The notes: a model not told the origin generated them from the sequence alone. Counted from the first letter of the stretch, positions 15,787-50,301 are shown. The stretch is 54,609 nt of DNA from a virus (IMGVR_UViG_3300031987_000009:1-54609); one strand, 5' to 3'. Made by a program: numbers and translations.

Positions 15787-17859
15787 ATGGTTAAAACCAA
15801 ATACATCGAAAACGATACATTTGTCGAAGGTGTATATAATCCTGACACTAACTATGAGTCATCTGAATGGGAAGAAATAACCGATTATGTTTTTGCAGGT
15901 GTTTCGGAATGTGATTCTGATAAATATTTATGTAAATTCCCTATTGACAGTGACTTTGATTCAGCAAATGATGTTAGTGCTGAACTTGTTTTCTATGTGA
16001 CAACAAATGGTGCAGGTGGTTCAGTACGTGTTTAGACTCTTGCTGATGATTACACGTTCACATCTGTAACGTATAACTCATTTGATTTCACTGGTTCTTC
16101 GGATTGGACAGCGAGATTTAATATCCCAGACACTGGTGCTACGTATGATGAACAAGTGACATGTGATATAACAAGTTCAATATTTGGAAGTCCAAGTACA
16201 AACTATGGGTACGCAGTCGATGGATACGAAGAACCATCCGGTGCAACGAACCACACATTGGGTATCCGTGCATACGAATATAGTACACGTAATCCTTATG
16301 TAAAAATAACCGAACATTCTGATTATGGATATAATTACGAATCACCTACATTTGATTGGTATGACACAATCTCTGGTATGTATTATGTAACATTATATGC
16401 ATATGTAGATATTGGTAGTACTACACAATCGGGTGATTATACCACACAGTTTGATATACGTACACCGTGGTCATCTACTGTACATACTGAATATTTAGAT
16501 GGAGGGGAAACTGTAACATATACACAATCAGGAAGTGGTTATACAGAATACTACACTGTTGAATACGTGTTTACAACTTATGATAGTGAGATTGGTTACA
16601 ATCCAGTAATGAAAGCATACTGGTATCGTGATTACGATGATTCATATGTATCATTAGACGGTGATGATGACAACAATGGTTTTGATTGGGATAACGCATA
16701 CAGAACTGTAACCAAAGGAACTGCTGAGGTTGCTGACGGTTCAACTGTTTACATAGACGAAGGTATATATGAAAGTGAAACATCACCATTTCCAAACAAT
16801 AAATCATGCAACTTTGAATTACGAAACGAAATAAATGTATATTATAGTTCAGCAGGAAACTATACCGGAAAAGCGACTGGTAGCCTGCCTTCAAAATATT
16901 TATTGCTATCGTGCAATAACCGTGTACCAGCAAAAGGTAAACTAATCAAATTACGTGTCAATGCATGGGGTTCAACTAATATAAGATTAAATGTATATAA
17001 GCAAAACAATTATGGCGATGGAATCGACCCTGATTTGTCTCTTATAGGAAACACTGGGTGGTACAATGTAGGGAACTACACGTGGTCAACACAAGAAACA
17101 ATAGATTTGACAGATGAGAACATTTATTGTGATGGTGGTGAAGTTATAGGTATATGTGTAGAACCGATTAGTTCTTCGAGTATAATGAAGACCGATTACA
17201 ATATATATGACAACTATGTTGTTTATACTGGAAATGCAGAAAACATATTTGATACTGATGTGCCAGAATCAGTTATAACAAGGAGTACAACTGGATTCCA
17301 ATATTCGGTATCAGTTGAACATGAATATTCTAAACAAATGATGATAACAGGTGAAGCATCTTACAGTTATTCTAATATTGGTTTCACTTCTTCTAATATG
17401 GGTACAGGTACATATAGTAATTCCAATAATGTTGTAGTGCTTGACAAAAATTTCGCTGTTTCATCACTACCAACAAATGAATCAAATATATTCAATTGTG
17501 CAATATTAGCAGGCAGAGGTACATCCCCTCTAACACACAGTGGTCTTTATAGGATAGTTGTAGCCAGAGATGACGGTGATAATTACTTACCTGTTTATTT
17601 AAGTGATTGGCGGTACTTATATATAAATGATGACACGGTTGAATTACATAACAAAATTAGATTGGAAAGTTTACAGCCATCTGATATATTCGGGGTTGAA
17701 ATAAAAGGCATTAGTGGAACACCAATGATTAGATTAGATACAAATGGTGGTACAGATTACTCTATTAAATACGAGGGGTCGTTCACATCATCGATACCAA
17801 AATCAAACTTTGAAGATTATGCAATATCCAAGATACCAATGAGGATGTATTACACATGA
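15787..17859 (+). CDS. Large tail/adhesin-like protein with in-frame TAG at 16033-16035
   Basis: ORF 15787..16035 and ORF 16156..17859 are in one frame separated only by TAG (SVRV[TAG]TLADDYTF); contains YVSLDGDDDNNG...AYRTVTKG beta-helix-cap-like motif. Confidence 0.75.
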
Positions 17860-29994: not shown

Positions 29995-30575
29995 TTTGTT
30001 ACCTCACATTTATTCGATATAAACTTAACTAAACTACCTTTACTTCCAATTTGATAAGCATTTGTTATTATGTCCTACGATGTAATAAACTTGTTGCCTG
30101 ATTTCCACTTATCATAAACTATTTGATGTGGTACTAAAAACACTTCATCCATACATCTAAACTCAAATGCAATCAAACCACGTCTATCTGTGCATACCAA
30201 AAATTGATGTTGTCTATGTAATTGTGATTCACCATTTTTATTGATGCGAAACAACTTACTAAAATAAAATCTTGTGTTTCTAAAGTGTTTACATTTATTA
30301 TGAAGTGGGTGTCCATCTTCATATACACTCTTACATTCAATACCTATAAACATCGAATCAAAATTATCAATCAACACATCAATCTTTTGTGTATAGTTAG
30401 GATGTATTGGATACATGTAAGCAAGTCCATTCAAACTATATGTATCCATATACTCATTAAAATATTCTGTCATGAACCATTCAAACTGTTCACCTACATC
30501 AACATTACTAATATTATTTTTCTTTTCCTGTCTGTTCAACCTACGTCTCTGAATACGTTTGGTTTTACTGTTCAT
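29991..30575 (-). CDS. Holliday-junction-resolvase-like PD-(D/E)XK nuclease with in-frame TAG at 30075-30077
   Basis: DVLIDN...IGIECKS; reading through TAG adds DIITNAYQIGSKGSLVKFISNKCEVTK and ends in an ATGA overlap with the MTase. Confidence 0.7.
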
Positions 30576-32998: not shown

Positions 32999-34001
32999 TC
33001 AATACACATCCTTTACAAATATCTTCTACTATATTTTTAGACTCTGCTAAAATTCTACTACAACTATACCTATTGTAATGAATCAATGATTTAACATTGC
33101 GTCTGGTTGCTTCAATATCAAAATCCATTTGATTCATAAACACACTTAATATATCTGATTCAGTCATACCACAACAATCACGTAGTTCAGGTACTAATGC
33201 ACATCTTAAGTTATGTCCACCTGTACCGACTGCACTAATATCACCAGTCTAAACTTTCTTTAAACATGGTCTCATTGTAAGCGGTAGCACACCATTAGAA
33301 CAACCTATGTTCAGACAGTTCGAAGAGTGCTTTGTGACACTCTTACACTTACGTTTGTACACACTCGGTATGTATCTGTCTAACTTAAGTTTATGTATAC
33401 AATCACCTGAACTTGTTACGATATGTGACCAGTTATCGTTCTTCTTATTCTTACCAAATGGTAACTTAACTAAATTACCGTATGGTTTAACATCACTTAA
33501 CTTCTTCTGTTTAGGATATACTTCACACTCTATATCACCTATTATTTCCCTACCGAAACTGTATGCATCTGATACGTTAACGTTATCCATGAATATCCAG
33601 ATATGTTTAGACACGCTTGAACCAGATGATTCACATATATAATCTATACCTAACGCTTCAAGTTTTGTAATGATTGTTAACGTATCTAACTCTACATCTG
33701 TCTCATTTTGTTCATCGTTATGATGGTCTATATCAAGACATATCCACTTAACCTTACCGTCTAAACTTATTTGGTATGAACCTATCGTGATTTCACCTGA
33801 TAAGTGTTGAAGTAGTGTGTAAGTATCCAACGGTCTGTCTGACCTACGATACGAACCGTTGTCCTGTTGTATAGCATAGTCATCATAACGATTAACAAAA
33901 TGTTTGTATAACATGTTTAGTTTGTTATCTGATAACTTAATACAATCATCAGATAACTCAAACATCAATGCCATACTATCACTTGAACTCCACCTCATCA
34001 A
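32976..34001 (-). CDS. Archaeo-eukaryotic primase: catalytic domain fused to PriL-like Fe-S domain through in-frame TAG at 33249-33251
   Basis: AEP motifs WICLDID, ESSG...HIWIF, EVYPKQ, GNLVKLPFG; then RPCLKKV[TAG]TGD...GHNLRCAL...F..QMDFD...T...YSC...ICKGC. Probable start 33974. Confidence 0.85.
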
Positions 34002-39203: not shown

Positions 39204-39881
39204 TCAATACACAAATACGTTTCCATCTGCTGTTATCTCATTATGTTCTCTGTTAACTTCATATACAATAGGATATTCATAATCCATTAACCATGCTCTC
39301 ATATGTCTAATCATATCTGATGTAATATCCAATGCAATGTATATAATTGCCTTTGCAGTACATCTTGGTTGTTCCTGTTCAGATTGTGGGAAGAAGTATT
39401 GTTGATACTTGTATACTTCATCAGAATTATGAATATCAACCGTAAACACTTGGTAGTATTGACCACCTAATCTACCATCGATAATACATTTCACATCACT
39501 ACTTTTAGCATTACGTAGACACATCTCTCTACTACTAATGGTATCTGTACCTAACATCAATACATCACAATCAAACTTTGTGTCCTTGCCTACACGTTTA
39601 TTAACTGCATTGATTTTGATACCAGTACGTTCTCTCACAATTTCTTGCATAGCACATACCTTAAACATACCAATATGTCTCAAATCAAAGTTCTGGTTAG
39701 GTAGGTTATGTGCTTCAACTTTATCATCATCATATACCGTGATATTCTTAATACCCATTTGTGCAAGGTATAGTACCAAAAATGAACCTATACCACCACA
39801 TCCTACTACTGCAACATTCGTATCACTATACTTATCTGGATTAAACCATTCCATTTGTCGTGTGTATTCTATGCTTGTCAT
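39204..39881 (-). CDS. ThiF/MoeB/E1-like ubiquitin-activating enzyme
   Basis: YTRQ, VVGCGGIGS, DDDKVEAHNLPNQ, K, GTD, IIDGRLGG, and RCTAK candidate catalytic Cys. Confidence 0.93.
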   Translation of the reverse strand: MTSIEYTRQMEWFNPDKYSDTNVAVVGCGGIGSFLVLYLAQMGIKNITVYDDDKVEAHNLPNQNFDLRHIGMFKVCAMQEIVRERTGIKINAVNKRVGKDTKFDCDVLMLGTDTISSREMCLRNAKSSDVKCIIDGRLGGQYYQVFTVDIHNSDEVYKYQQYFFPQSEQEQPRCTAKAIIYIALDITSDMIRHMRAWLMDYEYPIVYEVNREHNEITADGNVFVY

Positions 39882-39890
39882 GTTATCACT

Positions 39891-40205
39891 TCATTTTATT
39901 TCTTCAATTATATGAAACAGACCAACATGGTCTCCAAAGATAGTGTGTAATCCACCCTTATTTGTACCATAATAATTCAACCATGTTGGCAAACAATCAT
40001 TTATTCGTGCTTTAACAAACTTACCATCAGATGTCATCTCTGTTGGTTCTATTTCAACAAGTTTATTGAATTCACCTGTTCTGAATGGGTTACCACCTAT
40101 CTTACCTATACATCGTTTGCCTAAGTAGTTATTCTGAAACTCAGCCATATCATTATTTGAATACGACATATCTATATCAACACTGTTTATTTCAACTACC
40201 ATCAT
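39891..40205 (-). CDS. Hypothetical protein inside the ubiquitin-like cassette
   Basis: 104 aa beta-rich; co-oriented between JAB and E1. Confidence 0.65.
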   Translation of the reverse strand: MMVVEINSVDIDMSYSNNDMAEFQNNYLGKRCIGKIGGNPFRTGEFNKLVEIEPTEMTSDGKFVKARINDCLPTWLNYYGTNKGGLHTIFGDHVGLFHIIEEIK

Positions 40206-40789
40206 TAATCCTCCATGTTATCAAGTATGTTATATGCACCTATAATCTTATCCTCAAGTATGTTACTCAACACTACAAAATCTGTCATTCTGTAACATAA
40301 TTCTTTCATTACATCAAGTGTCACTTTTGTTCTGTTGTTGTAGATACTATTGAATACTTTACACATATCAAATGAGTGATATACATTGAATTCAAATATA
40401 GATGAACCAGTCTTAATCATAAAATCAATACAGTTATTGTATGTGAATTTTATCAGTGGATTACCAACAATATCACCCATTTTAAACGAATTTCTATTAA
40501 TTGATTTAAATGGATATTGGTTAAAGTAATCAGAATCAATATCCATGTACCCATTCTCTGTTGATAGATTATTTTTATACCCAATAAATATCACTTTCAA
40601 TCTTGTATCAATGTCAAAACCATATGTTTGTAGTCCATTTAAACAATCAGTGTGTATACATGGACTGAACAGTTCATATGGTGTATATTTGCTACCGGAA
40701 TGTGTGAATGCAGATGCTTTAGCATAACTCTTAGCCTCTCTTATCTGGTTTTGAAAGAATTGTTCCATTACATCATCCATTTTAATCAC
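40205..40789 (-). CDS. Hypothetical protein inside the ubiquitin-like cassette
   Basis: 194 aa; overlaps the JAB stop. Confidence 0.65.
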   Translation of the reverse strand: MIKMDDVMEQFFQNQIREAKSYAKASAFTHSGSKYTPYELFSPCIHTDCLNGLQTYGFDIDTRLKVIFIGYKNNLSTENGYMDIDSDYFNQYPFKSINRNSFKMGDIVGNPLIKFTYNNCIDFMIKTGSSIFEFNVYHSFDMCKVFNSIYNNRTKVTLDVMKELCYRMTDFVVLSNILEDKIIGAYNILDNMED

Positions 40790-41568
40790 CTAAATTGTGA
40801 ATACATTTCAACGAAACTTTCAATGTATTCATCATAATCTTCTTCACTATAATTATGCTTATCCCAATATGCATCAATTTGTTTATCTGTCATTGATTGT
40901 GCTTGTACACCATCCCATTCAAGTACTTCACGTTTGTTACTTGATGTCAACTCAACGTTGTTGTACGTTACAGTTGTTACTTTACTTTTGCCTTTCTTTT
41001 TATAGGTAAACTTCTTCTCACGTATCACACCTTCTGTATTTAACCAATCCATAACTTTTGGACTGTACCATTCTTCAACCATGACATTTACATCATCTAT
41101 CGTTACATGTTCAGGTTCAGAAGTGAACGGTGTGTCTACCAGCATATCAACTCTACCGGTAATTTCTTTCTTTTTATTTACGCATATACTAACGTAATAA
41201 TCATTATTGTAATCCAACCATTTCTCAATGTTATCATCATCGATTGAACTGAAGTTTGTATTCATATTAACATGGCTATGTACCCAACCATTTATTGGTA
41301 CATGAACATCTCTCATCAATGCTTCCGTTAATATATCATCTGTACCATATAATCCTTCATCTTGGTTCTTATCGAAATCACATGTACCACCAGTTACTTC
41401 CTGTGATGGTATAAATATTTCGTCTACTGTAATCATACCATTATCTTTATCAATACTGCAACTCATTAGTGCACCTACTTCAAGTTTACATACACTAACC
41501 ATTGTCCATATATCTGTCCATACATCTCTTGGTATATATATTCCTACTTCCATTTTATACATCTCCAT
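40786..41568 (-). CDS. JAB/MPN+ metallo-isopeptidase
   Basis: EVGAL, PSQEVTGGTC and GWVHSHVNMNTNFSSID = HxH-x7-S-x2-D zinc motif. Confidence 0.92.
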   Translation of the reverse strand: MEMYKMEVGIYIPRDVWTDIWTMVSVCKLEVGALMSCSIDKDNGMITVDEIFIPSQEVTGGTCDFDKNQDEGLYGTDDILTEALMRDVHVPINGWVHSHVNMNTNFSSIDDDNIEKWLDYNNDYYVSICVNKKKEITGRVDMLVDTPFTSEPEHVTIDDVNVMVEEWYSPKVMDWLNTEGVIREKKFTYKKKGKSKVTTVTYNNVELTSSNKREVLEWDGVQAQSMTDKQIDAYWDKHNYSEEDYDEYIESFVEMYSQFR

Positions 41569-42474
41569 TTATATTAATTCAAGTGTTTCCATCAAATTAC
41601 GTACGTCATTATGTAATTCAATTTCATTATAGTTTATGTCTACTAACCAATCAACTATGTTCATAATCGTTGCATCAAACACGATGGTTTTGTTGTATGT
41701 ATCATGGCAAATTACTCCATCTATACAATTAAAATCACTAAGTATATCATCCAATTGTCCTTCATAACGTTCTTCTACACCATGTATCTCTGATTTAGCC
41801 CAAGGTATATCAACAGTTGCTCTACAATTACACTCAACACATGTGAAACTATCGAAATCATCACAATCTCTGCAATAACATAACAACTCAAAGCATCCAT
41901 CATGTGTACAGTGACTACATGGATTTACACTTACTGGATTATAAAATGGATTTTCTGCTGACCATTTGCTCATGAAATCACGTAACGATAACATAAACAT
42001 AATTATATCACCGCTTTCTACGTAATCATCAATGATACCAAACGAACCACCCCAACATATATCACCATCACTACTTATGTTTGGATGTACACTATGAAAC
42101 CCACAATTTAATCCATCAGTTGGTAATACTAATAATTGTCCGCCATCAAATAAGCATACCTTATATGGAACAATACTGATATTACAATCTGAGTCATATG
42201 CATCATGTTCTTCATGTACATCTTCAATTCCAGTACAATATATTTCAAAACATTTATCCTCTAAATTATAATCAACACTATTCACGAAATCAAGCATTTG
42301 TAATTCATCACACAATTCATAGAAATCTACTTTAATTTCAATTTCAAGTGAACCATGTCCTTCACGTTTGAAATCCTTTTCGGGTATGTTCATTTGCATT
42401 TGTTTTTTGTCGATGACATTGCCATCATCATCTTCAAAATGATATGTGCATAACGTATCAATTACCAATTTCAT
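41569..42474 (-). CDS. E2/UBC-fold ubiquitin-conjugating enzyme with Cys-rich C-terminal region
   Basis: HPNISSDGDICWG has the same HPN-x7-C spacing as canonical UBC active sites; followed by an 8-9 Cys cluster. Confidence 0.85.
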   Translation of the reverse strand: MKLVIDTLCTYHFEDDDGNVIDKKQMQMNIPEKDFKREGHGSLEIEIKVDFYELCDELQMLDFVNSVDYNLEDKCFEIYCTGIEDVHEEHDAYDSDCNISIVPYKVCLFDGGQLLVLPTDGLNCGFHSVHPNISSDGDICWGGSFGIIDDYVESGDIIMFMLSLRDFMSKWSAENPFYNPVSVNPCSHCTHDGCFELLCYCRDCDDFDSFTCVECNCRATVDIPWAKSEIHGVEERYEGQLDDILSDFNCIDGVICHDTYNKTIVFDATIMNIVDWLVDINYNEIELHNDVRNLMETLELI

Positions 42475-42500
42475 TTAATCATCTCCATTTAAAAATATTA

Positions 42501-42523
42501 AATGTGGGTAATTATACCCACAT
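42501..42523 (-). terminator. Hairpin downstream of the Ubl gene
   Basis: AATGTGGGT / ACCCACATT stem followed on the minus strand by an AT/T-rich run. Confidence 0.55.
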
Positions 42524-42528
42524 TTTAT

Positions 42529-42786
42529 TTATACTATGTGAACATTTGTGGACATACCACCACCAGATTTAGGTGCAGATACCATCACTGCTACTGTTTC
42601 ATCAGATACAATATCCGATGTGTTCTTTACACCATGATTTGTATTGACTGAATCAGCAGTTACATCAAATGCTGCATAGATGACATCGCCATATGTTACA
42701 TCAACTCTGTCAAGTTCTTCTTTGAGTTCATCCATGTTTACAAATTCTCTCTCGTTACCCATACCTACTCTAATTTCTGTTGCCAT
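42529..42786 (-). CDS. Ubiquitin-like (beta-grasp) protein with C-terminal extension
   Basis: 85 aa; beta-beta-alpha-beta layout ending VAVMVSAPKSGG-GMSTNVHIV; strong AAAGGAG RBS; first gene of the E2-JAB-E1 cluster. Confidence 0.75.
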   Translation of the reverse strand: MATEIRVGMGNEREFVNMDELKEELDRVDVTYGDVIYAAFDVTADSVNTNHGVKNTSDIVSDETVAVMVSAPKSGGGMSTNVHIV

Positions 42787-43234: not shown

Positions 43235-43756
43235 TCAATTCCTTGTTTGTTCATTATTAGTTTCCTTTTCTTTTTCTTTGATTTTTTTTACACACTGTTC
43301 CTATGTTTCGCATAGTTCTGTTCCCCTCTGAATTCTGCCTGTTCCACCTCCATTAGGCGTACAATGAAATATAATTGATGTCCCATCCTTGGATTGTGTG
43401 CTAACTATTTTGGATATTTTTGCTCTTCTTGGTACATCATATGTACTGGGAATTGTACCAGATATACATTTGGGACATCGCAGGTATTCATCTATCCCCT
43501 CCGCCTTTACCTTGCCTGTGCCGTTACAGAAGGGACACATTTGTCTGTCCTCTGTTTCAACCGGTATCCATACTTCCTGTCCAATACTGTAATTTCTAAA
43601 TAAATCTTTGATGACTTCCTCTTTAGCATCTTTCATAGACACATGTTTTGAAGTATCTTTTTTCAATTCATGAAGTTCTTTTGACAGTTCATCACACAGT
43701 GTAAGTACATCTTCCATCGCCACTATTGCTCTGTTAAGTCGTTTATCTATTCCCAT
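43235..43756 (-). CDS. DnaJ-type Zn-finger-containing protein with in-frame TAG at 43301-43303
   Basis: CPFCNGTG...CPKCISG; LCET[TAG]EQCVKKIKEKE continues to TGA at 43235. Confidence 0.6.
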
Positions 43757-49503: not shown

Positions 49504-50301
49504 ATGACGACTAATGGTGAGTCCCAAAAGGGTGCGTTCAATATTCGTATGCGTAGGGCAACTCATCCACTAACAGGTAGGATAGACAAAACCAGAACTA
49601 ACACTAAATGGCGTGAACGTATACAGCAAATGGAGAAGACGTTAGGTTATGTAATATGTGGTGCACTTGACAGAAGTACAGGTCAACCATGTCGTAACCA
49701 ACCTATCGAAGGATACCATCGATGTAAGTTACACCAAGGAAATCCTAAGAAGGTAGAGAAACTTAAGGACAAAGTGAAAAACAATGTTTATCCACCAAAC
49801 GTAGGTTATGGTATGAATCTAAACATGTTCGTAAGATGTAGACGTTGTGAAGATTTTGAATGTAAAAATCGTATCAACGACAGTGAAAATGACGAATGTG
49901 TAATCGAGAAGCAAATCTACGATGACGTTATGGCTTTACGTGAGAAATACAAAATAGACGATGACATACTCCAAGGCGGTATGCTTGAATCTGTCGCTTT
50001 CTTATTCATAAAAAGATATAGGGCAGAGAAAGCAATCGCAGATGAAGGTATGGTACTTGAAGAAATCGTAGGGTTCGATAACAAAGGTGGTTCGTTTAAG
50101 AATAAGAAACCACATCCACTGTTAAAGAATCTTTCAGATATTAACCGTGAACTTAACAACTTTGCTAAGTCACTACAATTCTCACCAGAAGCACAGAATA
50201 AACTAAACGCAGATAAAGAGATGAATGATTCTGCTAACGTTATCGCTGGTATACTTAAAGATGCACATAAGAAAAGATTGGCAGACCAAGAGGAATCTTA
50301 A
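49504..50301 (+). CDS. terS: Terminase small subunit
   Basis: CGA...C...CKLHQG Zn motif, then FKNKKPHPLLKNL...FAKSLQFSPEAQ resembling P27-family TerS. Confidence 0.7.
   Translation: MTTNGESQKGAFNIRMRRATHPLTGRIDKTRTNTKWRERIQQMEKTLGYVICGALDRSTGQPCRNQPIEGYHRCKLHQGNPKKVEKLKDKVKNNVYPPNVGYGMNLNMFVRCRRCEDFECKNRINDSENDECVIEKQIYDDVMALREKYKIDDDILQGGMLESVAFLFIKRYRAEKAIADEGMVLEEIVGFDNKGGSFKNKKPHPLLKNLSDINRELNNFAKSLQFSPEAQNKLNADKEMNDSANVIAGILKDAHKKRLADQEES

Follow-up and report, generated by a model that had tools for sequence, protein, structure and literature searches.

The viral stretch IMGVR_UViG_3300031987_000009 (54,609 bp; called the window here, meaning the whole stretch that was analysed) carries six co-oriented open reading frames (ORFs) on its minus strand between positions 39204 and 42786. 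An earlier note, made from the sequence, had described them as a cassette of six genes for ubiquitin-like (Ubl) protein conjugation, comprising a Ubl tag, an E2 conjugating enzyme, a JAB protease, two ORFs called X and Y here, and an E1 activating enzyme. All six ORFs were recovered, and every motif quoted for them is present in the translations (Table 1). The start of JAB directly abuts the stop of E2, JAB and X overlap by 4 nt provided that X starts at GTG, X and Y overlap by 1 nt, and Y is separated from E1 by 9 nt. The cassette genes are translationally coupled, and Shine-Dalgarno-like GGAG sites lie upstream of Ubl, E2 and Y. The only real gap is 54 nt long, lies between Ubl and E2, and contains a hairpin and a T-run. 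RNA folding of positions 42470-42535 on the minus strand gave -15.8 kcal/mol, compared to a mean of -7.4 kcal/mol for shuffled sequences (z = -3.3). The hairpin after the Ubl gene is a possible partial terminator or attenuator.

Table 1. Positions of the cassette genes and of other features in the window
Feature	Position	Strand	Basis or description
Ubl precursor, 85 aa	42529..42786	-	Beta-grasp core predicted at residues 1-70; ..SAPKSGG-G77; 8-residue tail MSTNVHIV
11-bp perfect hairpin and T-run	42500..42525	-	RNA fold; between Ubl and E2 genes
E2-like conjugating enzyme, 301 aa	41569..42474	-	UBC-like core, 8-Cys module and low-confidence C-terminal tail
UBC-like core of E2, residues ~46-177	41944-42339	-	
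8-Cys module of E2, residues 186-215	41830-41919	-	
JAMM/MPN+ metalloprotease (JAB), 260 aa	40786..41568	-	Rpn11-like, with C-terminal extension; motif and profile
ORF X, 194 aa from GTG or 191 aa from ATG at 40780	40205..40789	-	ORFan
ORF Y, 104 aa	39891..40205	-	ORFan
Minimal E1-like adenylating enzyme, 225 aa	39204..39881	-	Single ThiF domain
ORFs ending in TAG	15787-16035, 30075-30575, 33249-34001, 43301-43756		Stop-codon count

The Ubl precursor has no sequence-family match in Pfam, NCBIfam, PADLOC or PHROGs. It was aligned with the products of the genes upstream of E2 in eight relatives (alignment A2). These proteins share the C-terminal motif [IV]SAPK[IS]x[GA]G followed by 0-8 tail residues, and G77, the last residue of SAPKSGGG in the window protein, is nearly invariant. 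A structural model made by AlphaFold2 (AF2) with A2 had a mean predicted local distance difference test score (pLDDT) of 84.2, with more than 90 in the core and a disordered tail from about residue 70. The top structural neighbours of the model are all beta-grasp proteins with Z scores of 5.5-6.7, namely the UBL domain of TONSL (Z 6.6), Raf Ras-binding domains, ubiquitin (Z 5.5), TtuB (Z 5.5), ThiS and Mth1743. The bacterial BilA Ubl (8tyx_A) could be superimposed with Z 6.0 and a root-mean-square deviation (rmsd) of 2.6 Å over 69 residues. A beta-grasp fold of this protein had been made a test of the cassette proposal by the earlier note, and the model displays it, as a Ubl whose flexible C-terminus ends at the conserved Gly. 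Tandem Ubl genes are found in two relatives, with three beta-grasp repeats joined by 17-residue linkers at L009:1639-2391 and two repeats at L014:7456-7917. Each of the repeats ends with APKIEAG or APKIDGG, as in polyubiquitin. Because tails of 0-8 residues and double or triple Ubls occur, an endoprotease would be required. At L085:6571-6582 (G001:C12, minus strand), the Ubl gene of another relative ends with ..KNG-TAG-AAC-GGT-TAA, containing a tandem AACGGTTAR duplication. This Ubl has a bare C-terminal Gly if TAG stops translation and a 3-residue tail (pyrrolysine-Asn-Gly) if TAG is read through.

The E2-like protein contains the motif VHPNISSDGDICWGG, in which H130-P131-N132 precedes a Cys at the catalytic position (HPNISSDGDIC140). 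As a single sequence it showed no match in Pfam at E <= 1, none in NCBIfam, PADLOC or PHROGs, and nothing in a phmmer search of the PDB. It detected no related loci when used as a query against viral contigs, and the one relative returned by a word-indexed search was a 92% twin. When 1.84 billion representatives were scanned in full with HMMER, 12 relatives were obtained, which together with three IMG/VR homologues are included in a 16-member alignment (A1). H130, P131, C140 and G142 are invariant in A1 within HP[N/H][IV]..G.[IV]C.G. One of the 16 members hit the Pfam model UQ_con (E = 0.05) and none hit Prok-E2_A to Prok-E2_E. The A1 profile gave 157 matches in the PDB at E <= 10, with eukaryotic UBC enzymes making up almost all of the best 60 of the 157 (best E = 0.0026) and C140 aligned to the catalytic Cys of solved E2s. 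The AF2 model has a mean pLDDT of 53.6 overall and 62-88 in core residues 50-170. The best 50 Foldseek matches of the model were almost all E2s (E ~0.07), and VIA alignment of the core (residues 46-177) gave Z 6.8-8.2 with an rmsd of ~3.3 Å over ~105 residues and 200 chains at Z >= 5. Because these modest lines from profile, Foldseek and VIA agree, we accept the protein as a predicted UBC-like E2, and the fold expected of it in the earlier note is thus supported for its core. Among 62 E2 relatives in IMG/VR, the Cys and the following Gly are retained in all 62 and HP in 57. The third residue is mostly His, and HPN of the window protein is the minority form.

Following the core of the E2 are the cysteines C186-x2-C189, C194 (or 196) and C199-x-C201-x2-C204-x7-C212-x2-C215, which are retained in 13-14 of the 16 A1 members. 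Eight cysteines are ligands enough for two zinc ions. Only stray hits of single members to IBR and zinc-ribbon models were obtained with this module, which has low confidence in the AF2 model. At L007:4821-6173, a second E2 paralogue (450 aa, with HPN...C and a Cys module) directly follows E1, in addition to the E2 that precedes JAB.

The JAB protein contains E30 within KLEVGAL, followed by H97-S-H99-x7-S107-x2-D110. E30, H97, H99, S107 and D110 are all invariant in an alignment of ten sequences (A4). The single sequence scored 18.5 bits with Pfam Prok-JAB, below the cut-off of 25. The ten-sequence profile matched Rpn11 (E = 2e-11) and the Caldiarchaeum Rpn11-like protein 6fjv (3.5e-9) in the PDB, and then CSN5, AMSH and BRCC36. 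From these residues and matches, JAB looks catalytically competent and of the deubiquitinase type. The C-terminal third of JAB (40786-41100) and its homologues in L007, L010, L012, L014 and L085 have a common acidic/aromatic motif, M-[ST]-D-x-Q-...-[YW]-W, in otherwise variable tails. This motif may be a docking site.

The E1-like protein carries the motifs GCGGIGS and HNLPNQ as well as Cys174. It matched Pfam ThiF (PF00899) over residues 16-187 with E = 4.4e-27 and 95.2 bits (cut-off 28.1). We aligned it with nine viral relatives in a ten-row alignment (A3). G27, G29, G32, D51, N59, Q63, K74, D113, R118, D135 and R137 are invariant, as are the Gly-rich loop GxGxxGS and a DGRLGG motif, and Cys174-Thr175 is nearly invariant. 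The E1 profile matched ThiF-type proteins, UBA5, UBA6 and MoeB in the PDB. The protein is a single ThiF domain with no ubiquitin-fold domain, rhodanese domain or second adenylation domain. Its best NCBIfam hits are ThiF and MoeB models, far below the curated cut-offs (for example, 73 bits vs. 159). Because the score is above the Pfam cut-off and below the cut-offs of the equivalog models, the E1 is placed in the ThiF superfamily but in none of the ThiF, MoeB, UbaA and PRTRC_ThiF families.

The nature of these hits bears on whether the cassette is a sulfur-carrier system, in which E1 would thiocarboxylate a ThiS/MoaD-like protein for thiolation of tRNA, a cofactor or nucleotides, with no conjugation to proteins. 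ThiF and MoeB as the top NCBIfam hits would fit such a system, as would the presence of ThiS, TtuB and Mth1743 among the structural neighbours of the Ubl and the annotation of cultured-phage E1 homologues as 'thiamine biosynthesis protein ThiF'. However, all ThiF and MoeB hits are far under the curated cut-offs, the poly-Ubl precursors of the relatives are a conjugation-type feature, and E1 is linked to an E2 with an invariant active-site Cys and to an Rpn11-like isopeptidase, neither of which is needed for sulfur relay. Rhodanese, TtuA/NcsA, ThiG/ThiH and MoaE-type genes were not found in the scanned ORFs. Because E1 is accompanied by E2 and an Rpn11-like protease and by no sulfurtransferase genes in the scanned ORFs, we consider a pure sulfur-carrier role very unlikely.

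Relatives of the E1 profile were found in 249 IMG/VR contigs, and the best 80 of these loci were examined by local profile searches. E2 was present in 61 of the 80, JAB in 76, and E1, E2 and JAB together in 58, while a short Ubl was recognised in 24. The gene order varies. The same gene set as in the window is present in viral loci L003, L004, L005, L007, L008, L010, L012, L014 and G001:C12. The neighbourhood search, which had been suggested for archaeal virus databases, thus shows that the Ubl-E2-JAB-E1 set recurs. Because the set recurs in unrelated viral contigs and its three enzymes are found together in most of the best loci, the association of Ubl, E2, JAB and E1 is not due to chance.

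X and Y do not belong to this recurrent set. The nearest distinct relative of the window is a 46.7-kb contig (L085 = G001:C12) binned with a Methanosarcinaceae metagenome-assembled genome (MAG), and its large terminase (TerL) is 62% identical. In this contig the genes are Ubl-E2-JAB-E1, and E1 follows JAB with no gene in between. In other relatives, the slot between JAB and E1 holds 0-4 unrelated small genes. Searches of Pfam, NCBIfam, PADLOC and PHROGs placed X and Y in no family, BLAST and tBLASTn detected nothing related to them in other cassettes, neither has an Atlas neighbour at 0.9 or above, and both are absent from L085. Among 5.8 billion proteins, X is matched by one copy of 95% identity and nothing else, and Y by three proteins of 72-91% identity, all in the same slot of strain variants with the same layout. 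In the strain variants, Ubl is 98.8%, E1 ~99% and E2 ~93% identical. Y is 72-75% identical, with indels, and X is split into ORFs of 97 aa and 91 aa in variants L176 and L177. These comparisons indicate that Ubl, E2, JAB and E1 are under purifying selection and that X and Y are weakly constrained and lineage-specific. Thus, of the six-gene cassette proposed by the earlier note the six ORFs stand, whereas the conserved unit, judged from the relatives, is four genes, with X and Y as strain-level passengers in a variable slot. X and Y were also considered as conserved parts of the cassette (an E3 or an adaptor). This was dropped, as they have no family, are not found in other cassettes and have only strain-level homologues. 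A role in specificity may be theirs.

The cassette is not confined to uncultured viruses. By tBLASTn, E1 found 79 isolated or assembled phages, including Flavobacterium FpV4-like, crAss-like Bacteroides and Xanthomonas phages, and blastn of the cassette against INPHARED phages gave no match. Flavobacterium phage FpV4 (L017, KT876724, 58968-69531) and crAss-like phage cr128_1 (L018, MT774392, 17080-27727) contain a block of Ubl-fusion, E2-like, JAB and E1 genes in their replication modules. The two blocks resemble the window cassette in a clearly homologous E1 (profile E ~1e-40), the same JAB motif, the same order and the location in a replication module. E1 is preceded there by a protein with the JAB motif and by a protein with HSH...C[IL]GS...GGPY. 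The protein upstream starts with a Ubl-like domain ending with ..KSGG or ..KSGA, but a C-terminal extension of 110-200 aa follows, in place of the 8-residue tail of the window Ubl. The HSH...C[IL]GS active-site motif and the bacterial hosts also differ, and the proteins at the equivalent positions in FpV4 and cr128_1 were missed by the A1 (E2) and A2 (Ubl) profiles even when filters were switched off. The E1 of FpV4 is annotated as 'thiamine biosynthesis protein' and that of cr128_1 as 'hypothetical protein', the JAB of cr128_1 only as 'metalloprotease domain', and most other genes of the blocks as 'hypothetical'. Because the cassette is widespread in uncultured viruses and has the same layout in cultured Bacteroidota phages, it is a feature of many tailed viruses and not a speciality of archaeal viruses. 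In the searchable literature, subscription-only work aside, we found no description of a complete Ubl-E1-E2-JAB cassette of a prokaryotic virus, but only Iyer et al. 2006, the Bil and CBASS papers and a remark on E1 in an Asgard virus. This large virus-borne cassette family is apparently undescribed. A relative of the viral E1 with 34% identity was also seen in a 3.7-kb contig binned as Bifidobacterium catenulatum (L015, CAVCCL010000291.1), which is probably a mis-binned viral fragment.

The window is a complete-looking IMG/VR record with direct terminal repeats. Its plus-strand arm encodes a T4-type TerL, a portal protein and an HK97-like capsid protein, and its viral origin is thereby upheld. 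The long minus-strand arm is devoted to DNA metabolism, with genes for a class II ribonucleotide reductase, dUTPase, a thymidylate-synthase homologue, C5 and N6/N4 methylases, an AEP primase and an HD protein, and the cassette is situated within this arm. Positions 49504-50301 encode a small-terminase domain protein (PF05119, E = 2.5e-7), which is separated from the large terminase by ~6.5 kb when the terminal repeat is crossed, with a large 835-aa protein and others between the two.

Among isolated viruses, the best full-length matches of TerL are haloarchaeal tailed viruses, and the sole match of the capsid protein is a Methanobacteriales virus. About 43 matches to the window, of 26-48 nt and 89-100% identity, were found in one genome (G046) of the GTDB family that contains the Methanosarcinaceae MAG. 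They are located at G046:C17:3700-7850, C25:130-2520, C13:54550-55130 and C13:68500-69090. The C17 and C13 matches fall in verified CRISPR arrays with 30-nt and 37-nt repeats (GTTATAATCAGACCTTAGAGGGATTGAAAT and GTTGACATAAGCACCCGTGATAAAAGGGAATGGTAAC). The C25 matches have a period of ~74 nt, and nearly all spacers of this ~2.4-kb stretch match the virus. Of the protospacers, eight lie in cassette genes, namely those for E1, JAB, E2 and Ubl. The virus is therefore heavily targeted by CRISPR in G046, and this unusually heavy record is a firm host link. Because so many CRISPR-spacer-sized matches are in one genome of the family, we assign the virus to a Methanosarcinaceae host, in agreement with the archaeal host claimed previously. 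The 87 greedily called ORFs of the window end with TAG in 4 cases, TGA in 44 and TAA in 39. Methanosarcinaceae decode pyrrolysine, and the rarity of TAG is compatible with such a host.

No cellular E2 was found in 177 genomes of the host family with the A1 profile or Pfam UQ_con, and the sole A1 hit was a viral contig binned with a MAG. The contrast with E2-less euryarchaeal SAMP conjugation that the earlier note had drawn fits this result. The host lineage does have ThiF/UbaA-type E1s, as seen from a positive PF00899 control search in Methanosarcina acetivorans. Together with the non-canonical NLPNQ motif of the viral E1, this could be taken to mean that the viral proteins are decoys, which would charge or sequester SAMP/UbaA parts of the host or block its JAMM protease or proteasome without transfer to any target. 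The full catalytic motifs of the three enzymes are retained across hundreds of divergent viruses, which argues for catalysis, and the cassette encodes a well-conserved Ubl of its own. We therefore regard a trap of this kind as highly improbable.

These results lead us to propose that the four-gene core is probably a working virus-encoded Ubl conjugation pathway, as judged from profiles and models. The Rpn11-like JAB would cut the Ubl precursor after Gly77 and remove MSTNVHIV, and it would split the tandem poly-Ubl of relatives into monomers. The minimal E1 would adenylate the exposed C-terminal Gly with ATP, and the Ubl would then probably be loaded onto the near-invariant Cys174. From there the Ubl thioester could pass to Cys140 of E2, beside the HPN flap, and E2 would move the Ubl onto target lysines, with its own 8-Cys module perhaps acting as a built-in substrate-binding or E3-like part. 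The mark could also be undone by JAB. The hairpin after the Ubl gene would probably raise the ratio of tag to enzymes. As for what the virus gains, we would guess that it modifies host proteins, or proteins of its own replication, while taking over the cell. The earlier note had suggested proteasome targeting, a block of host defence or exclusion of other viruses as purposes, with early/middle expression of the cassette, and these suggestions are likewise conjectural.

Several points weigh against this proposal. The support for the E2 is modest throughout, with no curated model, profile E ~0.003, Foldseek E ~0.07, Z up to 8.2 and whole-model pLDDT of 53.6. Its 8-Cys module occurs in ~13-20 of the 62 relatives, in a region with pLDDT ~40. 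The module probably binds two zinc ions and may have a substrate-binding or E3-like role, and this is guesswork. The E1 has no recognisable E2-docking domain. The Arg of the canonical NLxRQ motif, presumably an ATP-contacting residue as in MoeB, is replaced by Asn in the NLPNQ of the window protein, by N, S or Y in all ten A3 rows and by G in FpV4 and cr128_1. Because this second ATP-contacting Arg is replaced, activity of the E1 is not guaranteed. Neither a separate E3 nor a target could be identified. In addition, the cassette is known from sequence and models, and what it does chemically, what it tags and what the virus gains from it are all inferred from these.

The same chemistry might instead serve conflict between viruses, as an exclusion or defence system carried by the virus that tags structural proteins of competitors. 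Bil tags phage tail proteins, and Bil types I and II, the only characterised stand-alone Ubl-E2-JAB-E1 operons, are anti-phage (10.1101/2023.09.26.559546). The variable slot between JAB and E1 also recalls fast-evolving conflict genes. However, across very different and apparently lytic viruses the cassette is found in the arm for replication and nucleotide metabolism and not in a moron or accessory island. The Bil features are not seen in the single-domain E1 or the classical HP[N/H] E2, and the listed PADLOC hits of the cassette proteins include CBASS-type E1-E2 and JAB models only, with no Bil-type model. By analogy to Bil this use is conceivable, and we think it unlikely. Because the cassette is accompanied by genes for replication and nucleotide metabolism, both in the window and in distant phages, a role of the conjugation pathway in takeover or replication is favoured over a defence-like role.

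To our knowledge, complete prokaryotic operons for Ubl, E1, E2 and deubiquitinase have been understood so far either as anti-phage defences (Bil, CBASS) or as cellular systems that occur rarely, in a few archaea. Here the arrangement is reversed, with the whole kit carried by a virus whose host, assigned by CRISPR, belongs to a family with no detected E2. A bolder form of our proposal, which we put forward tentatively and consider rather doubtful, is that a Methanosarcinaceae virus imports a complete E2-dependent pathway (a Ubl, a minimal E1, a classical HPN E2 with a two-zinc E3-like module and an Rpn11-like isopeptidase) into a lineage of E2-less SAMPylation, where it would mark host defence or replication factors for the proteasome or for inactivation. 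The large viral family of HP[H/N]-E2 and Rpn11-like proteins would then be an unrecognised reservoir of 'eukaryote-type' ubiquitin components in prokaryotic viruses. If a function were established in a single tractable pair of phage and host, it would account for a viral gene set that is widespread and still lacks an explanation, and would bear on the spread of ubiquitin-type machinery between viruses and cells.

Bil Type I corresponds to class 6d of Iyer et al. 2006 and Type II to CEHH/6C (Chambers et al., 10.1101/2023.09.26.559546). In Type II, up to ~9 variable residues come after the conserved Gly of BilA and the JAB pre-processes the Ubl, while the multidomain E1, BilD, combines an inactive adenylation domain, an active one and a CYS domain (10.1101/2023.09.26.559546). 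Bil E2s have no classical HPN His and instead have a conserved His after the catalytic Cys (10.1101/2023.09.26.559546; Iyer et al. 2006, 6d). The viral cassette is similar to Bil in its four-part Ubl/E2/JAB/E1 set, in the tandem beta-grasp Ubls of some members and in the conserved Gly of the Ubl with a tail of 0-8 residues. Unlike Bil, which is a bacterial chromosomal anti-phage defence, it is carried by an archaeal virus. Its E1 is a single 225-aa ThiF domain, its E2 has HPN (HPH in most relatives) and no conserved His after C140 in A1, and its JAB is nearest to Rpn11, with BilC not seen at E <= 0.1 in the PDB profile search. PRTRC cassettes are likewise found on mobile elements and combine a ThiF-family protein with small associated proteins. 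The viral E1 scored only 41.5 bits with TIGR03736, whose cut-off is 144.75, and no ParB gene adjoins the viral cassette. The five other cassette proteins matched no NCBIfam model at E <= 1, and hence no PRTRC model contained there. Thus, by these comparisons, the cassette falls into neither of the two systems first named as parallels, Bil because of the E1 architecture and E2 signature and PRTRC because of the E1 score.

SAMPylation (SAMP, UbaA and HvJAMM1) works without an E2 (PMC4895103, PMC4443979, PMC2948915). Like the viral cassette, it operates in archaea, and it has a beta-grasp modifier ending in Gly-Gly, an E1 of the ThiF type and a JAMM protease. However, the viral E1 reached 37.9 bits with the UbaA model NF047750 (cut-off 450), and the viral cassette adds a conserved E2. 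Type II CBASS resembles the cassette in that the viral E1 matched PADLOC Cap2-type 'E1-E2' models with E ~1e-12 (E1 part only) and JAB matched Cap3-type models with 2e-4. The E1 and E2 of CBASS are fused, there is no free Ubl, the CD-NTase itself is the substrate, and a cyclase and an effector are present, whereas the viral E1 and E2 are separate proteins. No CD-NTase cyclase was found in the scanned ORFs of the window. Lambdoid tail assembly uses a pair of Ubl and JAB (Iyer et al. 2006). A tail-assembly reading after phage lambda TAPI/TAPK was rejected, as the cassette is outside the structural module and has E1 and E2. The Asgard virus Nidhogg has only E1-like (ThiF) genes and was proposed to exploit E2 and ubiquitin of its host (Rambo et al., 10.1101/2021.07.29.454249). 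It is also an archaeal virus with ubiquitin-system-like genes, but the present virus brings its own Ubl, E2, deubiquitinase and E1, and no E2 was detected in its host family.

The ubiquitin operon of Caldiarchaeum subterraneum and Asgard archaea encodes ubiquitin, E1, E2, a small RING E3 and Rpn11 (PMC3082918, PMC5654768). The viral cassette resembles it in the classical HPN E2, the JAMM protease matching 6fjv and the Gly-Gly end of the Ubl, and the viral 8-Cys module could stand in the place of the RING protein. It differs in being viral and not a cellular operon, in its minimal E1, and in a Ubl without detectable sequence similarity to ubiquitin. Moreover, the viral host is a euryarchaeal methanogen, of a lineage not known to have that system. 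By sequence, the viral E2 and JAB are nearer to the eukaryote-type and Caldiarchaeum enzymes than to the parts of Bil or CBASS. The cassette, by analogy, appears to work like Bil or the Caldiarchaeum-type operon but is a member of neither. Prokaryotic Ubl-E2-JAB-E1 sets were already known, and what is new is a virus-borne cassette with a minimal E1, a classical E2 and an Rpn11-like JAB in a Methanosarcinaceae virus.

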